NCBI GenBank assembly: GCA_019057385.1
Contig: JAHQJS010000004.1
Span: forward strand, 416,001 to 480,000
Length of the DNA: 64,000 nucleotides
Direction of reading: 5' to 3'
DNA from: Candidatus Borrarchaeum weybense
GTDB taxonomy: Archaea > Asgardarchaeota > Sifarchaeia > Borrarchaeales > Borrarchaeaceae
Notes under the pieces: generated by a model
Told to the model about the DNA's origin: nothing
What the model saw: only the letters and a program-made list of their open reading frames with translations
Databases searched by the model: none
Shown: in pieces, positions 1,430-47,031 of the stretch
Numbering within the stretch: the stretch's first letter is position 1
Layout of the letters: each line of letters starts with the position of its first letter
Position numbers and translations under genes: made by a program

Positions 1430-3133
1430 ATGATCACAATGCCACATATATTGGGATGGTATTCGGTATGGGAACGGTTGGGACGAGCAGGTTATCTAAA
1501 GTTATTTGCTTTTCAGTATAAGGCGGTTTATGCATTCAGGGATGGAAAAGATATATTTGTAAAAGCACCAACGGGTGCAGGAAAGACGCTCATTCCGCTG
1601 ATTTGTGCTACTCTTATTCTTGGAATGAAAAAACGATGTGTGTTCCTTGTACCGACCAGGCGGTTGATCGACCAGACCTATGACCGACTCAAAGACTGGT
1701 TTGAAAGTATACCACATTGCGAAGAAGAGTACAATATCGTAACCTTAACAGGAGATAATCGACCTTCTTACAAAGAAATACGAGAAGTGCACATAATCAT
1801 AACAACCTACGAGTCTTTTAATGGTATGTTGGCAAAACATTACAGACATTCACTTTTGAACAATGTCGGACTTGTGGCGATTGATGAAATGCATTATGTC
1901 GGGGATGTAGAGAGAGGGACGCATCTTGAGGAGGCTATTGTCAAAGCGAAGTTGTGGTTGCGACCTCGTCCTCAGATGATCTACCTTGCGGCTACGTTAG
2001 GGAATATACAAGAAATTGGGGAGTGGTTAAAAGCTACAGTCATCGAAACAAAAAAACGCAAGTCGGAAATCATTGTTGGATCACCCATTAACGTCTATAA
2101 TGAGGATGAACGGTTAAAGGTTATTGCTCAGTTAGTTAAAGAAACGGATCAGATAGAGATAGGGGCAAAGGAAACTGACAAAAGATGTGTGCTGGTTTTT
2201 TGTAGATCGAGATGGCATGCCGAAACTAGAGCACAGAATCTTGCAAAAATGTTGGAGAAGGAAGGATACAAAAAAACTGTTTCATATAGCCACAGAGGAC
2301 TGAAAACTGTGGAACGACAAAAGCGGATGAAAGCGTTTCAAAAGGGTGAAATTGACGTGTTGTTCACCACAACAGAATACAAGGAGGGTGTGAATGCTCC
2401 AGTCCTGCGGGTCATCATAGCTGATACCGAGGTGTTCAATTCTCAGGACATTGAACAGATGATCGGAAGGGCAGCCCGTCCGCGATTTTTTCAGATCGGA
2501 TATGCAAATCTGATTATTCAGGGAAACATAGAAGACATTCTCGAAAATAAAAGAATAAGGATAGAGGAAGGGGTAGCCCATTTTGAGGAATCACCATTGG
2601 AAAGTTGGGCAAAATATCATTTGAACGAGATCATCCTCAACAGGTTAGCTAAGGGTGCCTGTTCGATAGGTCGGCTTATTAGGTATCTCAAAGAGTTTTA
2701 TTTTTACTTCGAGGATACAACTCAGATAAAGAATTGGTATAAAGTTATGGAAAACGCAATAAGTGAACGAGAGATGTTTATGCTTACCGCAGACAACTAT
2801 ATGATACTCTTCTCTTTAATAGATAATGACGATAGATACAATGCGAAGGATAAGAAGAACTTTCACTCTTTCGTAACTGAATTCCTGATGCGTAGTCGCA
2901 AGTGCGCTGAAACACAAAAAAGAAGGCGTAAAAGGGATAAAAAACTCGTACTTGAAAAGAAGATGGCTCTTGTTTTCTTGAAAGAATACTTAACTAATAA
3001 ACTAAAACGTTATGATGCTGAGCTAAAAACTCAAGTTAAAACTCATCTAGGCTACCTCATCCATATTGGGTTTCTTAAAAAACAGGAACTGGAATCTAAG
3101 GCAATAAAGGAAGGATTAGGAAGTGCAGTCTAA
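1430..3133 (+). CDS. SF2 Ski2/Hel308-like helicase, N-terminal part (RecA1/RecA2 plus start of winged helix)
   Basis: Q-motif LFAFQ, Walker A APTGAGKT, VPTRRL, DEMH, LAATL, LVFCRSR, TTEYKEGVNAP, QMIGRAAR. Confidence 0.92.
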   Translation: MITMPHILGWYSVWERLGRAGYLKLFAFQYKAVYAFRDGKDIFVKAPTGAGKTLIPLICATLILGMKKRCVFLVPTRRLIDQTYDRLKDWFESIPHCEEEYNIVTLTGDNRPSYKEIREVHIIITTYESFNGMLAKHYRHSLLNNVGLVAIDEMHYVGDVERGTHLEEAIVKAKLWLRPRPQMIYLAATLGNIQEIGEWLKATVIETKKRKSEIIVGSPINVYNEDERLKVIAQLVKETDQIEIGAKETDKRCVLVFCRSRWHAETRAQNLAKMLEKEGYKKTVSYSHRGLKTVERQKRMKAFQKGEIDVLFTTTEYKEGVNAPVLRVIIADTEVFNSQDIEQMIGRAARPRFFQIGYANLIIQGNIEDILENKRIRIEEGVAHFEESPLESWAKYHLNEIILNRLAKGACSIGRLIRYLKEFYFYFEDTTQIKNWYKVMENAISEREMFMLTADNYMILFSLIDNDDRYNAKDKKNFHSFVTEFLMRSRKCAETQKRRRKRDKKLVLEKKMALVFLKEYLTNKLKRYDAELKTQVKTHLGYLIHIGFLKKQELESKAIKEGLGSAV

Positions 3134-5468
3134 GGTAATAAAGAACGGGAAATATAGCGTAACAGAAACTGGACAATGGGCAAGTCAATTTCTATTAAAG
3201 ACCAGCGATGCAAAGAAGATCCACAAATTTCTCCAGACACAGTATTTTTATTCAGAAGACGACGCTTGTAAAAAACTGGCGACTCTTATAAGTGAGAGTG
3301 TCCGTGAGAACGATAATTCGCGATATAGAGCGCAACAATATGAGTTGTTCATATTATCTTTAGTAGAAGGGTTCGATATTGATGAGGCAGCGGAAAACGC
3401 TCGGATGCGACAAGGGGATGCCGAAGGGTGCAGAAGAACTGCCGCGTGGATTGCAGAGGCAGTTAATGCCTACGTTGGAAAGAACATTCCGAAGATCGCG
3501 GAAATGGCAGAAGGAATTAGTGAAGCGCTTACCGTAGATAAAAGAAGGGAAATAGGACCTGGGGTGCGAAGTTATGCAAAAGAGAAACCCTCGTCATATC
3601 CAGGTATTCAAAAAACAATTTGTTCTGTTATTAATCAATTAGGAATTTGCACATATGATGCGATCCATAACATAATTACTGACAAATATGGTGAGTCAGT
3701 AGATCGAACGACAACAATTTGGAACATCCTTGATTTAAGGGCGAAAGACGAAGTTATAACTTTATCAAGAGGCAAGGGAATAGGGCGTCCCGTAATCCAT
3801 GTGTGTAAAAAGGGAATGAATGTACCTGAACATATGCGCAAGACTTGCGGATCCTGTGTATTTTACATATCCTGTGACGATGATGAAAAAGAACGAGACA
3901 ATCAAAGATTTATCTGTGAACTGCGAAGGGAATGCAACAAGCGCGTGGAAAAAAATATTGTAAGCACGTACGTTACGAGCAATATGGGTGCGTGTAAATA
4001 TCATAATTCGTCTCAAGAGCGAAAAAGACGAAGTTTTCGTAAATTTGAGAGGACAGACACAGGCAAACCTATCTGCCAAATTTGTAAATCGGATGCCGTT
4101 AAGGAACCAACCGCTTATGATCACTACACCATATGTTCCAATTGTAATTCACAGTATTACTACCTTTGCGACGGCAGGTTCAGTGTTCAGCCAGGTGTCA
4201 GAGATTTATTACAGCAAGCATTAGAAGAAATCTATGGAAAGTCCGTTAAACCTGTTAAAAGGTGTGCAAAACTAGAGGGTTCTTTAGATCGGCAATACGT
4301 TGAATTAACCATTAAGAAAGGGGATGCAGCTCATATTGACCAAAATAAACTCATTTATATTCCAAAAGAGGAGAAGACACGTTCTTATTTGTTAGATGCC
4401 ATTGAATGTGTTAGAGTGCTTGACGGTGCATATATCACGCCTTATGTATATGAGAAACTCGATGACAGAATTTTATCTGGCAAGAATGTGAATAGACCGC
4501 CAAACGCTTCCTTTGAAGGGTATATAAACATACCTGACGTGCACAATCAACTGAAAGAACGTATACAAGAAATTCGAGAGCAAGAAGTTGGTTTGGCATT
4601 GGCGAGGATACTTATAATGGGTAAGAAAATGAATAATGCAATTCTTACTCTGCAAGCTGGTGAGGAGGGATTACTGTGCCCAGTAGATGCCAGCAGGTTA
4701 TTTTTCAAACAAATGAATGTTGTCGCCCATACTATCATGTATTGGACGGGAAATAGAGAAAATCTGCTCAGTTTCGAGGCGGTTGGCGAACGATACGCAT
4801 GGAAAGCAATTAAACGCGCCTTGAAGGATACATCTATGCGCTTTGAAAATCGTACACAGGAACGATATATCTTTTCGGTTCCCTATATCGGCAAAGTTAG
4901 GGCACGATCTCCCTTTAGTGCAGGACTTAATGCCATTTATCGCCGTGTCCTCGAAATATGTAGAGAGGTGCTTTGCGAAAAAGGATTCTCTTGGTTTCCT
5001 GGCGAACTCGTACTCCATTATAGAAGAAGAAAAGACCAACAAATCCCCATTGGAACAGCTCTTGATTTCCGAGAGTTGTTTTTGGCACTGTTCAGATTCA
5101 CTTATATGAAAGCGTGCAAGAAGGATCAAATTAGGAATACAGATTTTGTACTGTCAAGTACATCTCGCGAGGAAAAAGTATATACCCTTACATACGAGGC
5201 AGAGGATAAAGTTAGAGACTTAATCGAAAGCGTCATGAATAAAGAGGTATATTATCTTGGAAAACAGATGTCACTTTGGAAAGCAATGAAAGAATGCGCA
5301 CGTTCACTTCGCAACTTTTTATTAGAGGGATCTAAATTTATTCCTTTTGTCTGCGCATTAAATGAGGAGCAATTTAAAAAGATTTTAAAGACTTTCCAAA
5401 ATATAGAGAGGTTTTGTGGACCTTCAGGTAAAGGACCTCCTGTTTCAATGTTTGATATCTTATCATAA
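3123..5468 (+). CDS. cas1: Multidomain Cas1-family integrase: Hel308 C-terminal region + wHTH + Zn fingers + Cas1 domain (~4290-5350)
   Basis: Hel308 tail (SVTETGQWASQFLL; GDAEGCRRTAAWIAEA); CxxC pairs; Cas1 motifs in order: ALARILIMGKKMN, LLSFEAVGERYAW, RFENR, PFSAGLNAIY, VLH, ALDFRELF, terminal ARSLRNFL..FIPF. Confidence 0.85.
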   Translation: MQSKVIKNGKYSVTETGQWASQFLLKTSDAKKIHKFLQTQYFYSEDDACKKLATLISESVRENDNSRYRAQQYELFILSLVEGFDIDEAAENARMRQGDAEGCRRTAAWIAEAVNAYVGKNIPKIAEMAEGISEALTVDKRREIGPGVRSYAKEKPSSYPGIQKTICSVINQLGICTYDAIHNIITDKYGESVDRTTTIWNILDLRAKDEVITLSRGKGIGRPVIHVCKKGMNVPEHMRKTCGSCVFYISCDDDEKERDNQRFICELRRECNKRVEKNIVSTYVTSNMGACKYHNSSQERKRRSFRKFERTDTGKPICQICKSDAVKEPTAYDHYTICSNCNSQYYYLCDGRFSVQPGVRDLLQQALEEIYGKSVKPVKRCAKLEGSLDRQYVELTIKKGDAAHIDQNKLIYIPKEEKTRSYLLDAIECVRVLDGAYITPYVYEKLDDRILSGKNVNRPPNASFEGYINIPDVHNQLKERIQEIREQEVGLALARILIMGKKMNNAILTLQAGEEGLLCPVDASRLFFKQMNVVAHTIMYWTGNRENLLSFEAVGERYAWKAIKRALKDTSMRFENRTQERYIFSVPYIGKVRARSPFSAGLNAIYRRVLEICREVLCEKGFSWFPGELVLHYRRRKDQQIPIGTALDFRELFLALFRFTYMKACKKDQIRNTDFVLSSTSREEKVYTLTYEAEDKVRDLIESVMNKEVYYLGKQMSLWKAMKECARSLRNFLLEGSKFIPFVCALNEEQFKKILKTFQNIERFCGPSGKGPPVSMFDILS

Positions 5469-5703
5469 ATACAATTCACTTTTTGCTCTCTTTTTCGACT
5501 TGGATTAATTTAGACCATCAACCTCTTCCTTTTGGTTCTCTAAGAAATGCTTCTTCTTGGTGAAAAACCTAACTAAGAATAAATTTGATTCAATGTTTAT
5601 TTAAATGAAAAGAAGAACAAGAAAGGTTTTTTCCTCCATCTCCAAAGACATAGATAAAAACGTTACTAGATCGCTTATTTTTACAAAAGGAGTTCATAAA
5701 ATA

Positions 5704-5750
5704 ATCCGTTATACAAAAAGCGTTATTTAAAAACCGCAATGCTTATATAC
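5704..5750 (+). promoter_or_regulatory. Archaeal promoter (BRE + TATA), copy 1, upstream of cas7-like gene
   Basis: TACAAAAAGCGTTATTTAAAAACCGCAATGCTT, identical in copy 2 (6771-6817). Confidence 0.7.
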
Positions 5751-5782
5751 TCGGTTGCAAAGGTATATTTGAGGTTTTCAAA

Positions 5783-6598
5783 ATGAAAAAAACTAAGAAA
5801 CAGATCAATGTTCATGCCTTCACTCCTATTGCGAAACCGATCAATACCTCCATACAGAAAAATTCCACTATGCTTCTTTTGGGAGAAATTCCGTATGTCA
5901 ATGGATCGAAAACATTTACTACCAAGCTGTATTATCTCAAAGGTTTGCGAGGAATGCTGAGGCATGCCTGCATGGACTTAGCACGTGCTTACGATATCGA
6001 GGTCTGTCACAGTTCTGAAAAGACTGAACTCAGGGATGGGACAAAACTCGTCTCGCAAGGGTTTCATCCGCTGGGTGCCTGTGATCCTCCCTGCATTCTG
6101 AGGCGTATCTTCGGTACGTTCAGAGAAGACTCCCGCATTAGTGTTTCCGCCGATCCCATCACTTCTATCAGCCATAAGGAATACATTACCGAAGTTCCCG
6201 TCCAAAAAGTTCATATCGCCAGTGAAAATAGGATTGCTCTTTCCTATGACAGGATCCCCATACAAGACTTTAGACAATCCTATTTTTCAGGTTACTTTAC
6301 CTTTTCCATTGATGCCACCCAATTGACCGATGATGAGATTAAATTTCTCTTGGAATCGCTGTTGCATATAGAGTACTATGGTGGTGGCAGAAGTGCGGGC
6401 TATGGTCATGTCAAAATTCTAAATGTTGAATTGCTGCACATAACAATCGAAAGAAAATTTGAATCTGAGAACGGAACTCTGAAAGTCGTTGAAGAGGAAA
6501 AAGTAACTCCGCTAGAACTTGATACTCTCGATGACTGGACGGAAAGTATATCCCTATCTGCACTGACACAAGAACTAGAATTGATGGATGGGGAGTGA
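5783..6598 (+). CDS. cas7: Cas7-group RAMP protein
   Basis: N-terminal strand + TPI; LKGLRGMLRHA; Cys cluster VCH..GACDPPCILRRIFG; ENRIAL; Gly-rich loop YGGGRSAGYGHVKI. Confidence 0.85.
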   Translation: MKKTKKQINVHAFTPIAKPINTSIQKNSTMLLLGEIPYVNGSKTFTTKLYYLKGLRGMLRHACMDLARAYDIEVCHSSEKTELRDGTKLVSQGFHPLGACDPPCILRRIFGTFREDSRISVSADPITSISHKEYITEVPVQKVHIASENRIALSYDRIPIQDFRQSYFSGYFTFSIDATQLTDDEIKFLLESLLHIEYYGGGRSAGYGHVKILNVELLHITIERKFESENGTLKVVEEEKVTPLELDTLDDWTESISLSALTQELELMDGE

Positions 6599-6648
6599 AA
6601 AAGATGTTGAATAACCTGCAATACTCGTTATTTCCTTTTTTCTCATCT

Positions 6649-6770
6649 AAGACGGAATGCTTCCCTTGTAGCGAGGGGAGCACGTTCTTGTGCATGAGAC
6701 TGAACCATCTTGGAGGTCTGACGCCTCGTCTCATGGGGATGGATGACAGGCAGGGGACGAGAAAAGTCAC
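6649..6770 (+). ncRNA. Putative ~120-nt structured RNA/element, copy 1
   Basis: Invariant blocks shared with 7758-7875, separated by hairpins that differ in sequence but keep pairing; strand inferred from the copy 2 promoter. Confidence 0.65.
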
Positions 6771-6817
6771 ATCCGATTTACAAAAAGCGTTATTTAAAAA
6801 CCGCAATGCTTCTATAC
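6771..6817 (+). promoter_or_regulatory. Archaeal promoter, copy 2, upstream of RAMP-HD gene
   Basis: Near-identical to 5704-5750; followed by a perfect 9-bp hairpin GCCCGTTAT/ATAACGGGC at 6827-6851. Confidence 0.7.
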
Positions 6818-6875
6818 AATTAATATGCCCGTTATAACATTGATAACGGGCTAAAATCTATAAATAGGGATAAAG

Positions 6876-7691
6876 ATGACACAAAATTGGTTTAAATTGA
6901 TAGGAATCACCAAAACGCCTGTGATCACAAGAAGAAGGCGGTTTTTCTATAAATTAGGAGTAATCTCCATTCATGGTCGCCCCAGAGTCTTCGGTAAACT
7001 CACAAAAGGGGAAAGACGCCCACCTAAGACGTATAGGGCGTGGTATGGTGACGTCGAGTTTATCGTGCCAGAAGACAGACTTGACGACGCGCTCGCCATT
7101 GATTGTTTCGGGAGTTTCACTAATGAAGGCATGGGACAAATGCAATGGAAAGAAGCGAAAAAACTCTACAAAAAACCCCTCTATACTCCGAGAAAAGCCA
7201 AGATCAGAAAAATGCTTCCGAAACTTTCAGAGACGCAAGAAAAACTATTAATAGGTTTTTTACTTCATGATTTTGTCCATACCGAAAAACACAACAGCAA
7301 AATCTATACCGAGGTTAATATATATGATGGATTTGTCTATGAATTGGCTAAAAATCATCATAATTACACGATAGACGATAGAGAAATCCCTTTGCTCTGT
7401 ACTCTTCAATATTACGATAGGCTTTCTTCAAGAATCTCAAGAAAATTCCGCTTTTCTGCGTCCTCACGCTATCGCGTCACTGAAATAGAAAAAATAGATT
7501 TCGACGAACTTAAACAGGAGATCGAAACGCGCCAATATTCCCTATACGCGCTTTATAGTTATGTCTATAAGTCTCAGACACTCAATAAAATCAACGAAGC
7601 ACTCAAATTCGGTTTTTCATCGCTAAAAAATCATCTCTTATTAATGGTTAACCTGTATATTGATGACTCACAAGAGGCTATATACTTATGA
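6876..7691 (+). CDS. Minimal RAMP (Cas5-like) fused to Cas10-type permuted HD nuclease
   Basis: FKLIGITKTPV start, G-loop FGSFTNEGMGQMQW, then LLHDFVH, KNHH, YYDRLSS and C-terminal SLKNHLL. Confidence 0.75.
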   Translation: MTQNWFKLIGITKTPVITRRRRFFYKLGVISIHGRPRVFGKLTKGERRPPKTYRAWYGDVEFIVPEDRLDDALAIDCFGSFTNEGMGQMQWKEAKKLYKKPLYTPRKAKIRKMLPKLSETQEKLLIGFLLHDFVHTEKHNSKIYTEVNIYDGFVYELAKNHHNYTIDDREIPLLCTLQYYDRLSSRISRKFRFSASSRYRVTEIEKIDFDELKQEIETRQYSLYALYSYVYKSQTLNKINEALKFGFSSLKNHLLLMVNLYIDDSQEAIYL

Positions 7692-7757
7692 CACGAGAAA
7701 CTCTCGTTTTGAATAGTGGCGTTTATATAGGTCTTTGCAAGCGAATATACAAGTTAC

Positions 7758-7875
7758 AAGGCGGAATGTTCCTCGCATCACGCGGAGAACACGTTCTTGT
7801 GCATGAGACTGAACCTGAGAGGTCTGACGCCTCGTAGAAGGGAATGAATGACAGGTAGGGGACGAGAAAGGTCAA
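7758..7875 (+). ncRNA. Putative ~120-nt structured RNA/element, copy 2
   Basis: Homologous to 6649-6770; TATA box TTTATATA at 7722-7729 just upstream. Confidence 0.7.
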
Positions 7876-7935
7876 AAAACAAGTGGTGTATGCGATAAAG
7901 TGGACGTGTACCAAAAAGTAATATATAAACGATGG

Positions 7936-7957
7936 AGGGCTCATTTGAGCCCTTTTT
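7936..7957 (+). terminator. Hairpin followed by T-tract
   Basis: AGGGCTC-ATTT-GAGCCCT-TTTT. Confidence 0.5.
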
Positions 7958-8023
7958 ATCTATTTAAAAACTGAGTTTTCCCGCCGATTTGGTCAAAAAT
8001 ATAAAACTGATATTTATGATAAA

Positions 8024-8311
8024 GTGGATGTGTATGAAGGTGGAACTTGTCAATATTGCAAGGCAATCGTCAAAACCGCGCTACAATCTCTACACAAGAA
8101 AGGAGACATTTCGCTAGTCAAAGATATGCAAGTTATTGTTGGTAAAAACCCTTCCGAGCCATATTCGAAATCAAGTTTAGATTTTATTGTAGGCGATTGC
8201 GCATGTGAATCGACAGATTACGAGGGTATTGAAATTCCTGGTTGTCCACCCTTTGACGCTTTCGTAAAAATCAGAAAAGCAGTGCACAACAATGTTTCTG
8301 AGAAAACATAA
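8024..8311 (+). pseudogene. Probable C-terminal fragment of a DUF362-type Fe-S protein
   Basis: GTCQYC..VIVGK..IVGDC..IPGCPP pattern, normally the tail of a longer protein; N-terminal part absent. Confidence 0.5.
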
Positions 8312-9172: not shown

Positions 9173-9251
9173 AATGATTATGTTCTTCAATATCACGACA
9201 GAAGTTCCTCAAGTATTTCAGGAAAATTCAGATTTTCTGCGCCATTATTCA

Positions 9252-9330
9252 GAGAACACTTTCTTGTGAATTAAACTGAACTTAAAAGGTCTAACGCCTT
9301 ATAGAGGTTCATAATAAAACGAAAAGTTAA
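9252..9330 (+). repeat. Decayed third copy of the 120-nt element
   Basis: GAGAACACTTTCTTGTGAATTAAACTGAACTTAAAAGGTCTAACGCCTT aligns without gaps to 7785-7833. Confidence 0.75.
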
Positions 9331-9385
9331 ATTCTATACCTTTAAAATAGCTTGTATACAAATAATGAAAAAAGAAGGAAGATGG

Positions 9386-46433: not shown

Positions 46434-46809
46434 TTATATGGTGTCTTGTCTGTTTTCAAATTTGGAGGATATTGCTGGGCTATTAACTTTTAAACTGCTA
46501 TAAAAACTTTAAGATAAAAAACTCAGCATTATTAGTTTTGTTTAGAAAAGAATTTCCTGACAACTTTTCCTCTTCACCTCTCCCCATGTTAGTACATCCG
46601 TCTTTTCCATGATTCCAACTTTGATAAGATATGTTGAATTGGGAATATTAACTCAGTGTTTTTATTCATTGCAGAATTGTAAGATCACTCAATTTGGATT
46701 CGGTTGCATGACACATTGTCGCTTTAAGTAGAGAAAAAGCACATTTTTCCAGTTATAGCATAATATATTTCCCTATCGGTAGTATCCGTGGATAAAATCG
46801 CTTAAAAAC

Positions 46810-46850
46810 GGGAATGAATGACAGATAGAGGGAAGAGAAAGGTCATAAAC
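46810..46850 (+). repeat. Decayed 3' fragment of the 120-nt element
   Basis: GGGAATGAATGACAGATAGAGGGAAGAGAAAGGTCA versus GGGAATGAATGACAGGTAGGGGACGAGAAAGGTCA at 7840-7874. Confidence 0.7.
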
Positions 46851-47031
46851 ACATATGGATGCATGGGAACATTTATAATTTCTCACAGGTACTCGGTATT
46901 TTAATTAAAGTTAGTTTATTTTGATGTTTTCGCATTACATTCGTAGAGATTTTGATTAACTCATGTAGATAAGTATTTTACTCGTTAATTCCTATGGATA
47001 TAAATCTTTTAGAACCTTCCCCAGTTAGCAG

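Follow-up and report, generated by a model that had tools for sequence, protein, structure and literature searches.

The stretch of DNA analysed here, which we call the window, is 64 kb of the 4.18-Mb genome of Candidatus Borrarchaeum weybense (G000:C4:416001-480000). Close to its start lies a module in which a helicase-Cas1 gene, a cas7-like gene and a gene for a RAMP protein with an HD domain (RAMP-HD) are accompanied by two copies of a structured element of about 120 nucleotides (nt), and in which a promoter-like segment upstream of cas7 is repeated directly behind the first of these elements. The gene set is that of an ARAMP (Asgard RAMP) system, a kind of locus that Makarova et al. 2020 reportedly described as an array-less CRISPR derivative. 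An earlier reading made from the letters alone (the sequence-only reading) had seen in the module a unit of promoter, RAMP gene and structured element repeated twice and exactly abutting, and had offered three explanations: integron-like cassettes recombined by the adjacent Cas1, co-regulation of the two genes, or a guide behind the first element that matches the system's own cas7 promoter. We find that the elements belong to a family of pseudoknotted RNA scaffolds and that the tails behind them match either insertion sites, as behind the second element of this module and at other loci, or, behind the first element, the region upstream of cas7; the last of the three explanations fits best. The features of the module are as follows.

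1430-3133, + strand: Hel308/Ski2-like helicase half of the helicase-Cas1 gene (Pfam DEAD 2.7e-30, Helicase_C 7e-16; paralog maps)
3123-5468, + strand: linker and Cas1-fold integrase half of the same gene (PADLOC Cas1 2.4e-10; TIGR00287 7e-7, below its cut-off)
5704-5750, + strand: cas7 upstream segment, a target-like copy of tail A, with TATA box TTATATAC at 5743-5750, 33 nt before the ATG
5783-6598, + strand: Cas7-like (Csm3-like) RAMP gene (Pfam RAMPs 27.8 bits, cut-off 22.1; PADLOC Csm3 1.3e-10)
6633-6648, + strand: conserved T-rich leader, consensus CTTTTTTTCTCATC, without a TATA box (upstream-flank alignment)
6649-6769, + strand: RNA scaffold A, pseudoknotted (covariance model match, 130.7 bits)
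6770-6817, + strand: tail A, with linker 6770-6776, then a 41-nt copy of the cas7 upstream segment; weakened TATA-like TTCTATAC at 6810-6817
6827-6851, + strand: hairpin after tail A; the stem sequence varies by class, the stem is kept
6876-7691, + strand: RAMP-HD gene; residues 1-105 RAMP fold, residues 118-271 Cas10/Csm1-type HD domain
7722-7729, + strand: TATA box of RNA B, TTTATATA, about 27 nt before the scaffold 5' end
7756-7874, + strand: RNA scaffold B (covariance model match, 133.8 bits)
7875-7914, + strand: tail B, with linker 7875-7880, then a 34-nt guide-like segment (7881-7914) copying the DUF362 site at the junction
7925-8012, + strand: decayed terminal scaffold copy (weak covariance model match, 8.1 bits)
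7937-7957, + strand: hairpin GGGCUC/GAGCCC followed by T5 after tail B (z -3.15), terminator-like
8013-8311, + strand: 3' part of the host DUF362 gene, displaced; its identity to the matching end of the intact gene in the relatives G003 and G004 is 89-95%

Two repeats give the module its shape. The promoter-like one is a direct repeat of 47 nt with 3 mismatches (5704-5750 and 6771-6817), inside which 33 nt are identical (5712-5744 and 6779-6811). Its 32-mer core has two sites only in the 4.18-Mb genome when up to 3 mismatches are allowed, and the reversed control has 0. The structured element is present at 6649-6770 and 7758-7875 with about 80% identity, and the first hairpin differs between the copies by compensatory changes. 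Both repeats, the 33-nt core included, lie where the sequence-only reading had placed them. It was also right that the promoter similarity starts where the first element stops: the similarity begins 1-2 nt past the last bases of scaffold A (GUCA, 6766-6769), and this abutment has a structural reason, because a pseudoknot fixes the 3' end of the scaffold. The two enclosed genes were said to have no visible similarity at the DNA level, and they have no detectable relationship (hhalign probability 0.4%). The idea of one unit repeated twice held only in part. The repeats are there, but the two units differ: a TATA box precedes element B, and element A has none. Similarly, the name RAMP, given to both genes, suits the first fully and the second by half, as its N-terminal RAMP fold is joined to a Cas10-type HD domain.

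We examined the proteins by sequence and by predicted fold. The helicase-Cas1 gene is a single open reading frame (ORF) of about 1330 amino acids (aa) in six paralogous loci of this genome; in the window it is split, because a short tandem duplication at 3095-3150 (SKAIKEG / SKVIKNG) shifts the frame, giving ORFs of 567 aa and 781 aa. An AlphaFold2 (AF2) model of the C-terminal 430 aa of the 3123-5468 ORF had 68 Foldseek matches in the PDB at E<=1e-3; all 50 of those listed are Cas1 or casposase, the top one being casposase 6opm_B (5.4e-11). The adjacent Cas1 is therefore real, and an invariant E..H..D/E would form its catalytic triad. Sequence searches of the PDB with the Cas1 half, with the profile of its paralogs and with that of RAMP-HD had no matches. 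The helicase-Cas1 gene at locus L028 of the relative G004 has its split in the same linker. At 130-380 nt before the helicase ORF, the 14-mer AATTTGTGTCTAAA stands in three exact copies, at 1052-1065 and 1222-1235 on the + strand and at 1286-1299 on the - strand (chance expectation 0.06). The genome has no further exact copies, and one near-copy lies upstream of a paralogous gene at C4:345901; the copies are possible operator sites.

The cas7-like gene product has ten paralogs that are 64-70% identical, and against the PDB by sequence it finds RAMP proteins only (E about 0.07-0.8), with weak Csm3 matches. RAMP-HD has no Pfam family. Its AF2 model has a pLDDT of 90.5, and Foldseek returns chiefly RAMP proteins for it. 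In VIA-align the C-terminal domain matches residues 2-219 of 6ifk_A with Z 8.7 and 6mua_A with Z 7.5; the N-terminal domain has Cas6/Cas5/Csm4-like matches (Z 6-7), and these fold data do not separate Cas5 from Cas6. H131-D132, H139, H161-H162 and D181 are invariant in 35 homologs. In the larger set of homologs (n=139) most are nameless, and all named ones come from Asgard metagenome-assembled genomes (MAGs) except one record labelled Zixibacteria. In the paralogous module at C4:524k (L014:6084-6892), the RAMP-HD gene is broken into ORFs of 125 aa and 179 aa.

No ORF of the module matches Cas10, the type III large subunit with Palm/cyclase domains, and the 64-kb window holds no array-like tandem repeat; its repeats are the 120-nt scaffolds only, irregularly spaced. 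The closest loci to this gene set are in Ca. Borrarchaeum yapensis and in MAGs of Promethearchaeota and Heimdallarchaeota. We conclude that the gene set is an array-less ARAMP. It consists of a helicase-Cas1, in two pieces in the window, a Csm3-like Cas7, and a protein in which a RAMP is joined to a Cas10-type HD domain. It has the Asgard host, the diverged Cas7-/Cas5-like RAMPs with type III affinity, of which the second carries the nuclease domain, the distinct Cas1 and the lack of an array that characterise ARAMP.

Copies of the structured element were found by BLAST and with a covariance model, and the structure was assessed on 64 aligned copies. The scaffold has five helices and a pseudoknot. 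In the alignment 93.3% of cells are paired, and sliding the partner lowers this to 36-47%; covariation scores 0.401, versus at most 0.138, and 17 pairs have double changes. The strongest covarying pair of all joins a loop base to the third-last base of the scaffold (GC 31, CG 18, AU 9), and because of this pseudoknot pair we consider the 3' end of the scaffold to be fixed at 6769 for A and at 7874 for B. The G-U pairs are frequent and strand-specific, which places the RNA on the + strand. At gathering scores no Rfam family matched anywhere in the window; relaxing to E<=10 in 5400-8100 gave matches of chance level only. A hammerhead-like reading of the 3' half of the scaffold was tried and dropped, as the core did not fit (judged by eye) and Rfam gave no support.

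There are about 25 scaffold copies in this genome and at least 7 full modules with the order helicase-Cas1, cas7, element, RAMP-HD, element, as well as partial modules and orphans. The scaffold model matches 6 of the 6 genomes of the class. Among these is a 2-Mb genome of another family with 33 copies, and most of the copies sampled there have none of the three genes in 1-3 kb of flank. In a sample of 145 further Asgard genomes the model has no match. At an ARAMP locus of Heimdallarchaeota (L029) we found no convincing scaffold (best 12.6 bits), and distant ARAMP loci may have a different RNA or none. Decayed copies also occur in the window at 9220-9343 and 46704-46852 (23.2 and 21 bits). In genome G005, of the second family, most of the orphan scaffolds (L064, L066, L069-L071, L073, L074, L077, L079) share about 70 nt of conserved sequence upstream; they may sit in a longer dispersed repeat, possibly a non-autonomous element.

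Each RNA unit consists of the scaffold, a linker of 6-9 nt, a variable tail of 30-40 nt and a hairpin. In the alignment of upstream flanks, the T-rich leader precedes most A-type scaffolds, behind cas7 in its 3' region, and a TATA box is kept before most B-type copies in this genus. The genes between scaffolds are always cas7-like and then RAMP-HD, both in the 7 modules of this genome and in about 15 loci elsewhere, metagenomes included. The number of scaffolds varies from 1 to 4 per module. With the element written as el, we saw the layouts cas7-el-el-el-RAMP-HD-el, cas7-el-el-RAMP-HD-el, cas7-el-RAMP-HD-el-el and cas7-RAMP-HD-el, and some scaffolds are only about 37 nt apart. Where scaffold A is missing, the two genes lie 17 to about 150 nt apart or overlap.

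In 4 of the 4 loci that have an internal guide unit, the window included, the tail at this offset matches the insertion site. At C3:92k the tail agrees with the empty site of G004 at 29 of 30 positions and with its own flank at 24 of 30, and the junction is about 7 nt before the site. The tail is closer to the empty site of another genome than to the flank beside it, so it is not a local duplication. At C4:340k, where the host gene begins MFEKLK, the matched site is the point at which the alignment (read by eye) switches from lower identity to near-identity with G004; at C5:119k the host homology to G004 (95%) starts at the first matched base. Two further loci, C4:524k and C4:753k, have empty sites in relatives, and there the last scaffold and a linker of 6-8 nt directly abut host DNA. 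The island at C4:524k is 11.45 kb long, and its mapped junctions, the one fully mapped pair, have no target-site duplication and no inverted ends. Behind the linker, then, comes target-site sequence, which the RNAs either carry themselves or read into. Between internal tail copies and the host site beside them there are differences of up to 20-25%, which we read as import from another host allele. A target search with the orphan tails of the window's genome gave only 17-nt matches at chance level. Separately, about 380 nt at L012:4903-5282 are absent at the orthologous place in G004, and about 130 nt of them, found again on many G001-G003 contigs, point to a small dispersed repeat.

Tail B gives the same picture in the window itself: its 34 nt at 7881-7914 copy the stretch of the DUF362 gene across which the junction falls. 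The relatives G003, G004 and G001 have an intact DUF362 gene followed by a ZIP transporter gene, that is, an empty site. This genome has only the last 300 nt of the DUF362 gene (8013-8311) before the ZIP gene, and a full copy lies 28.7 kb upstream. When that upstream copy is compared with G004 in bins of 100 columns, identity is 93-99% over the 500 nt before the junction and 73-85% after it. From this switch and the split gene we conclude that an island of 28.7 kb was inserted and brought a replacement 3' end for the gene. Its right end is at 8012/8013, and homology to the intact DUF362 gene of the relatives begins at 8013. An ORF of 95 aa at 8024-8311, which has weak metal-chaperone-like matches, was rejected as a gene of its own, since it is the displaced DUF362 3' end. 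Just past the ZIP gene sits the decayed scaffold at 9220-9343, in a place that is kept in G004.

By Pfam, the island ORFs of at least 90 aa include no integrase apart from Cas1. Six have no match at all, and since these are family-less, the islands may be moved by an unrecognised factor. Among the cargo are genes of the TIR, RNase III, Piwi, HD, AAA, SMC-like and Hsp70-like kinds, and the island is of defence type. At the start of the cargo, outside the window (L089:3148-7421, which is G000:C4:396148-400421), genes with a TIR domain, with RNase III and a dsRBD, and with a Piwi domain (Argonaute-like) stand in a row; the HD, AAA, SMC-like and Hsp70-like genes follow as further cargo (L089, L061). 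The left flank of the window, C4:413001-416000, has no match in the relatives, which fits island DNA and is no proof by itself.

Tail A has the layout of the site-matching units, with a linker, about 40 nt and a hairpin, and its match is to the system's own DNA. From tail position 2-5 to about 48-54 it corresponds to the region upstream of cas7, the cas7 TATA box included. This match recurs in 11 of 14 modules and in five sequence classes. All 9 modules in the window's genome (7) and G004 (2) have it; they form four classes, with scores of 29-41 within the own class and a background of 8-19 between classes. From the metagenome loci came a further module of a class already known, and also a fifth class, assembled from two sister-sample contigs, that scores 32 against a null maximum of 15. 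A few positions of tail and target are co-substituted within classes. A lost scaffold upstream of cas7 was sought in 5300-5800 with the covariance model and its filters off, and the best score on the + strand was 3.3 bits. The tail has the sense of the cas7-coding strand and its match lies upstream of the expected start of transcription, so an RNA copy of it could pair only with template-strand DNA and not with the cas7 mRNA. Directly upstream of the cas7-side copy, at 5680-5701, the first 22 nt of the tail segment recur once more as a partial copy (77%), and a tandem half-repeat of the TTTACAAAAG motif is therefore present in the cas7 upstream region.

We are fairly confident that the elements are RNA scaffolds with target-related tails and not cassette boundaries. 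For the segment behind scaffold A we favour a dual reading, to which we give about an even chance of being right: the segment would be the promoter of the RAMP-HD gene and also the tail of RNA A, aimed at the cas7 promoter and at its own template, with feedback on both effector genes. We believe that a role as RAMP-HD promoter is probable in itself. The self-directed guide is favoured because tail A shares the layout of the site-matching units, because the match starts at the fixed end of the scaffold, and because the matching is class-specific. This had been the last of the explanations in the sequence-only reading, and it is the best fit to what we see, as sister RNAs carry insertion-site matches at the same place and the tail/cas7-upstream match recurs in five classes.

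If the dual reading is right, the promoter repeat abutting scaffold A would be a guide/target pair. The tails would be part of the mature RNAs; RNA A would be bound by Cas7 and RAMP-HD into a ribonucleoprotein and pair with template-strand DNA in two places, the cas7 promoter and its own template before the RAMP-HD gene, and this binding to DNA would damp expression of both effector genes. RNA B, made from its own TATA promoter, would act as a homing or attachment-site guide toward the site in the DUF362 gene. More tentatively, we can picture ARAMP as a whole as an RNA-guided mobile system. Cas7 and RAMP-HD with the tail of the scaffold RNA would find a site, the helicase-Cas1 would insert the island there, the terminal scaffold, reading into the host, would regenerate a guide, and the second RNA would throttle the cas7 promoter.

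The strongest alternative is a plain promoter duplication, in which the same promoter or operator is used twice, a protein factor co-regulates cas7 and RAMP-HD, RNA A ends at its scaffold and the intergenic region is simply compact. We regard this as possible, if somewhat doubtful, and co-regulation of the two genes, which the sequence-only reading had also named, is possible as well. Several observations weigh against the self-directed guide and most of them suit this alternative. The match, with its TATA box, stands 59 nt ahead of the start codon of RAMP-HD, just as would be the case for a plain promoter, and in both copies the repeat closes with the TATA box, whose distance to the start codon is a sensible one. 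The matching tail is always on the scaffold that adjoins RAMP-HD, and this holds for both loci where several scaffolds separate the genes. Two metagenomic modules, L121 and L126, have the conserved features of the tail with no match upstream of cas7, and the match of a third, L124, is weak; the upstream DNA examined at L121 and L126 has no helicase-Cas1 gene. Certain differences between tail and cas7 upstream region recur across classes, namely CCAAT versus CCATT in most modules and a weaker TATA in the tail in two classes. Such recurrence suggests separate constraints on the two sites, and a weaker TATA box before the gene of a single-copy subunit would fit the stoichiometry of a complex. Given how close the two genes lie in modules without scaffold A, a second promoter could have become necessary once an RNA gene was inserted between them. 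Finally, the tail is 100% identical to its own template, a self-targeting problem to which our answer is one of analogy.

Other features are harder to explain by a promoter duplication. In every module the similarity starts within 1-5 nt of the fixed scaffold end. Its strongest part is the 30-40 nt before the TATA box, where the 33-nt core lies, and not the TATA box itself. The five classes have middles that cannot be aligned, and each would require a regulator with altered specificity. A hairpin comes after the tail, as it does in the RNA units that match insertion sites.

We consider it quite unlikely that the tails are not RNA guides at all. On that view the scaffold DNA is the end of a mobile element, the tails are remnants of attachment sites left by recombination or tandem insertion, the RNA is otherwise structural or regulatory, and the cas7-side copy is the relic of a duplication of scaffold plus tail. 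The view draws on the two loci, C4:524k and C4:753k, where the last scaffold with its linker abuts host DNA, on the decayed scaffold between tail B and the junction in the window, on another that ends 4 nt before the junction at C3:92k, and on the island carrying a replacement 3' end of its target gene, as integrase-driven elements do. But each internal host-like tail comes at a fixed offset after a complete scaffold with its own promoter, and a hairpin follows; one of these tails lies 1.7 kb from the junction, and they are closer to the alleles of other genomes than to the adjacent flank. Nor is there a scaffold remnant upstream of cas7 or, by Pfam, an integrase other than Cas1 in the island, as given above. 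Very improbable, lastly, are integron-like cassettes, with promoter, gene and element as the mobile unit and the element/promoter boundary as a recombination site for Cas1: the boundary is sharp, a Cas1-fold protein is encoded next door and the number of scaffold units varies between loci, but between scaffolds there is always the RAMP-HD gene or nothing in every module examined, the comparison of homologous loci that the sequence-only reading had proposed as a check gives the same two genes in the same order with only the number of RNA units changing, the units are unequal (B with its own promoter, A without), paralogous modules have 64-70% protein identity to the window's copy as whole units, and no integron-type integrase was seen.

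Since 2019-2020, ARAMP and the haloarchaeal HRAMP have been listed among the CRISPR derivatives that lack an array, and their action is described as enigmatic (PMC8730458). The summaries that treat ARAMP (PMC8730458, section 6; PMC12669027) call it array-less with an enigmatic mechanism and mention no RNA. What differs here is that every module has 1-4 copies of a 120-nt structured RNA, with variable tails that match targets, at the ends of inserted islands. Compared with type III CRISPR-Cas, the module has the HD domain only, fused to a RAMP, and instead of an array or a crRNA (CRISPR RNA) with an 8-nt tag it has a 120-nt scaffold at the 5' side.

The closest parallel for tail A is found in CRISPR systems that are autoregulated by cr-like (crRNA-like) RNAs whose spacers match cas promoters: tracr-L in II-A, CreA/CreTA in I-B, and mini-arrays in I and V-A (bioRxiv 10.1101/2023.03.03.530964). 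In both cases a repeat-derived RNA inside the cas locus has a spacer-like part that matches the promoter of an effector gene, and by this analogy the repression of the cas7 promoter would be effector-dependent. The differences are in scale and arrangement. Cr-like RNAs have a normal CRISPR repeat of 28-37 nt and a partial match of 10-14 nt (bioRxiv 10.1101/2023.03.03.530964), whereas here the scaffold is pseudoknotted and 120 nt long, the match covers about 45 nt at 80-94% identity with the TATA box included, and a second copy of the target, standing before another effector gene, is at the same time the template of the RNA.

For the island, CRISPR-associated transposons (CAST) are comparable in that a guide near one island end matches the chromosomal attachment site (here as a sequence match at 4 loci) and the island has cargo, here of defence type. 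Unlike CAST, the island ORFs of at least 90 aa include no TnsA/B/C or TniQ by Pfam, and divergent forms are possible in the six matchless ORFs. The only integrase-like protein is the helicase-fused Cas1, the interrupted gene receives a replacement end from the island, and the junction is within or next to the matched site and not 50-70 bp away. With casposons the module shares a Cas1-fold integrase outside a CRISPR context, with casposase as its top structural match, and insertion into the ends of host genes. It differs by the lack of any family B polymerase match, by junctions at C4:524k that show neither terminal inverted repeats nor a target-site duplication, and by the presence of RAMP proteins and an RNA. 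The bridge RNAs of IS110/IS1111 and the omega RNAs of IscB/TnpB are likewise structured RNAs encoded by the element, with a variable part that matches the target, but their proteins, RNA fold and layout are unrelated, and there is no Rfam match here. Integrons have an IntI-type tyrosine recombinase and cassettes bounded by attC sites whose gene content varies; here no match to an integrase family was found, and the gene content between scaffolds is fixed.

A conserved structured RNA with target-matching tails would supply the specificity component that ARAMP has been missing and makes an RNA partner testable. If the tails do guide, three features that have not been seen together before would be combined in one system: a very long scaffold before the guide, a Cas1-helicase in place of the Tn7 machinery on a site-specific island, and a guide aimed at the promoter of its own effector. 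Should the promoter repeat turn out to be only a promoter, the picture of ARAMP is still corrected, as these loci are not RNA-less and ride on mobile islands with defence-type cargo. If the reading as an RNA-guided mobile system is true, ARAMP would be the first Cas1-based, RNA-addressed system for DNA insertion, and it would be found in the archaeal lineage closest to eukaryotes.

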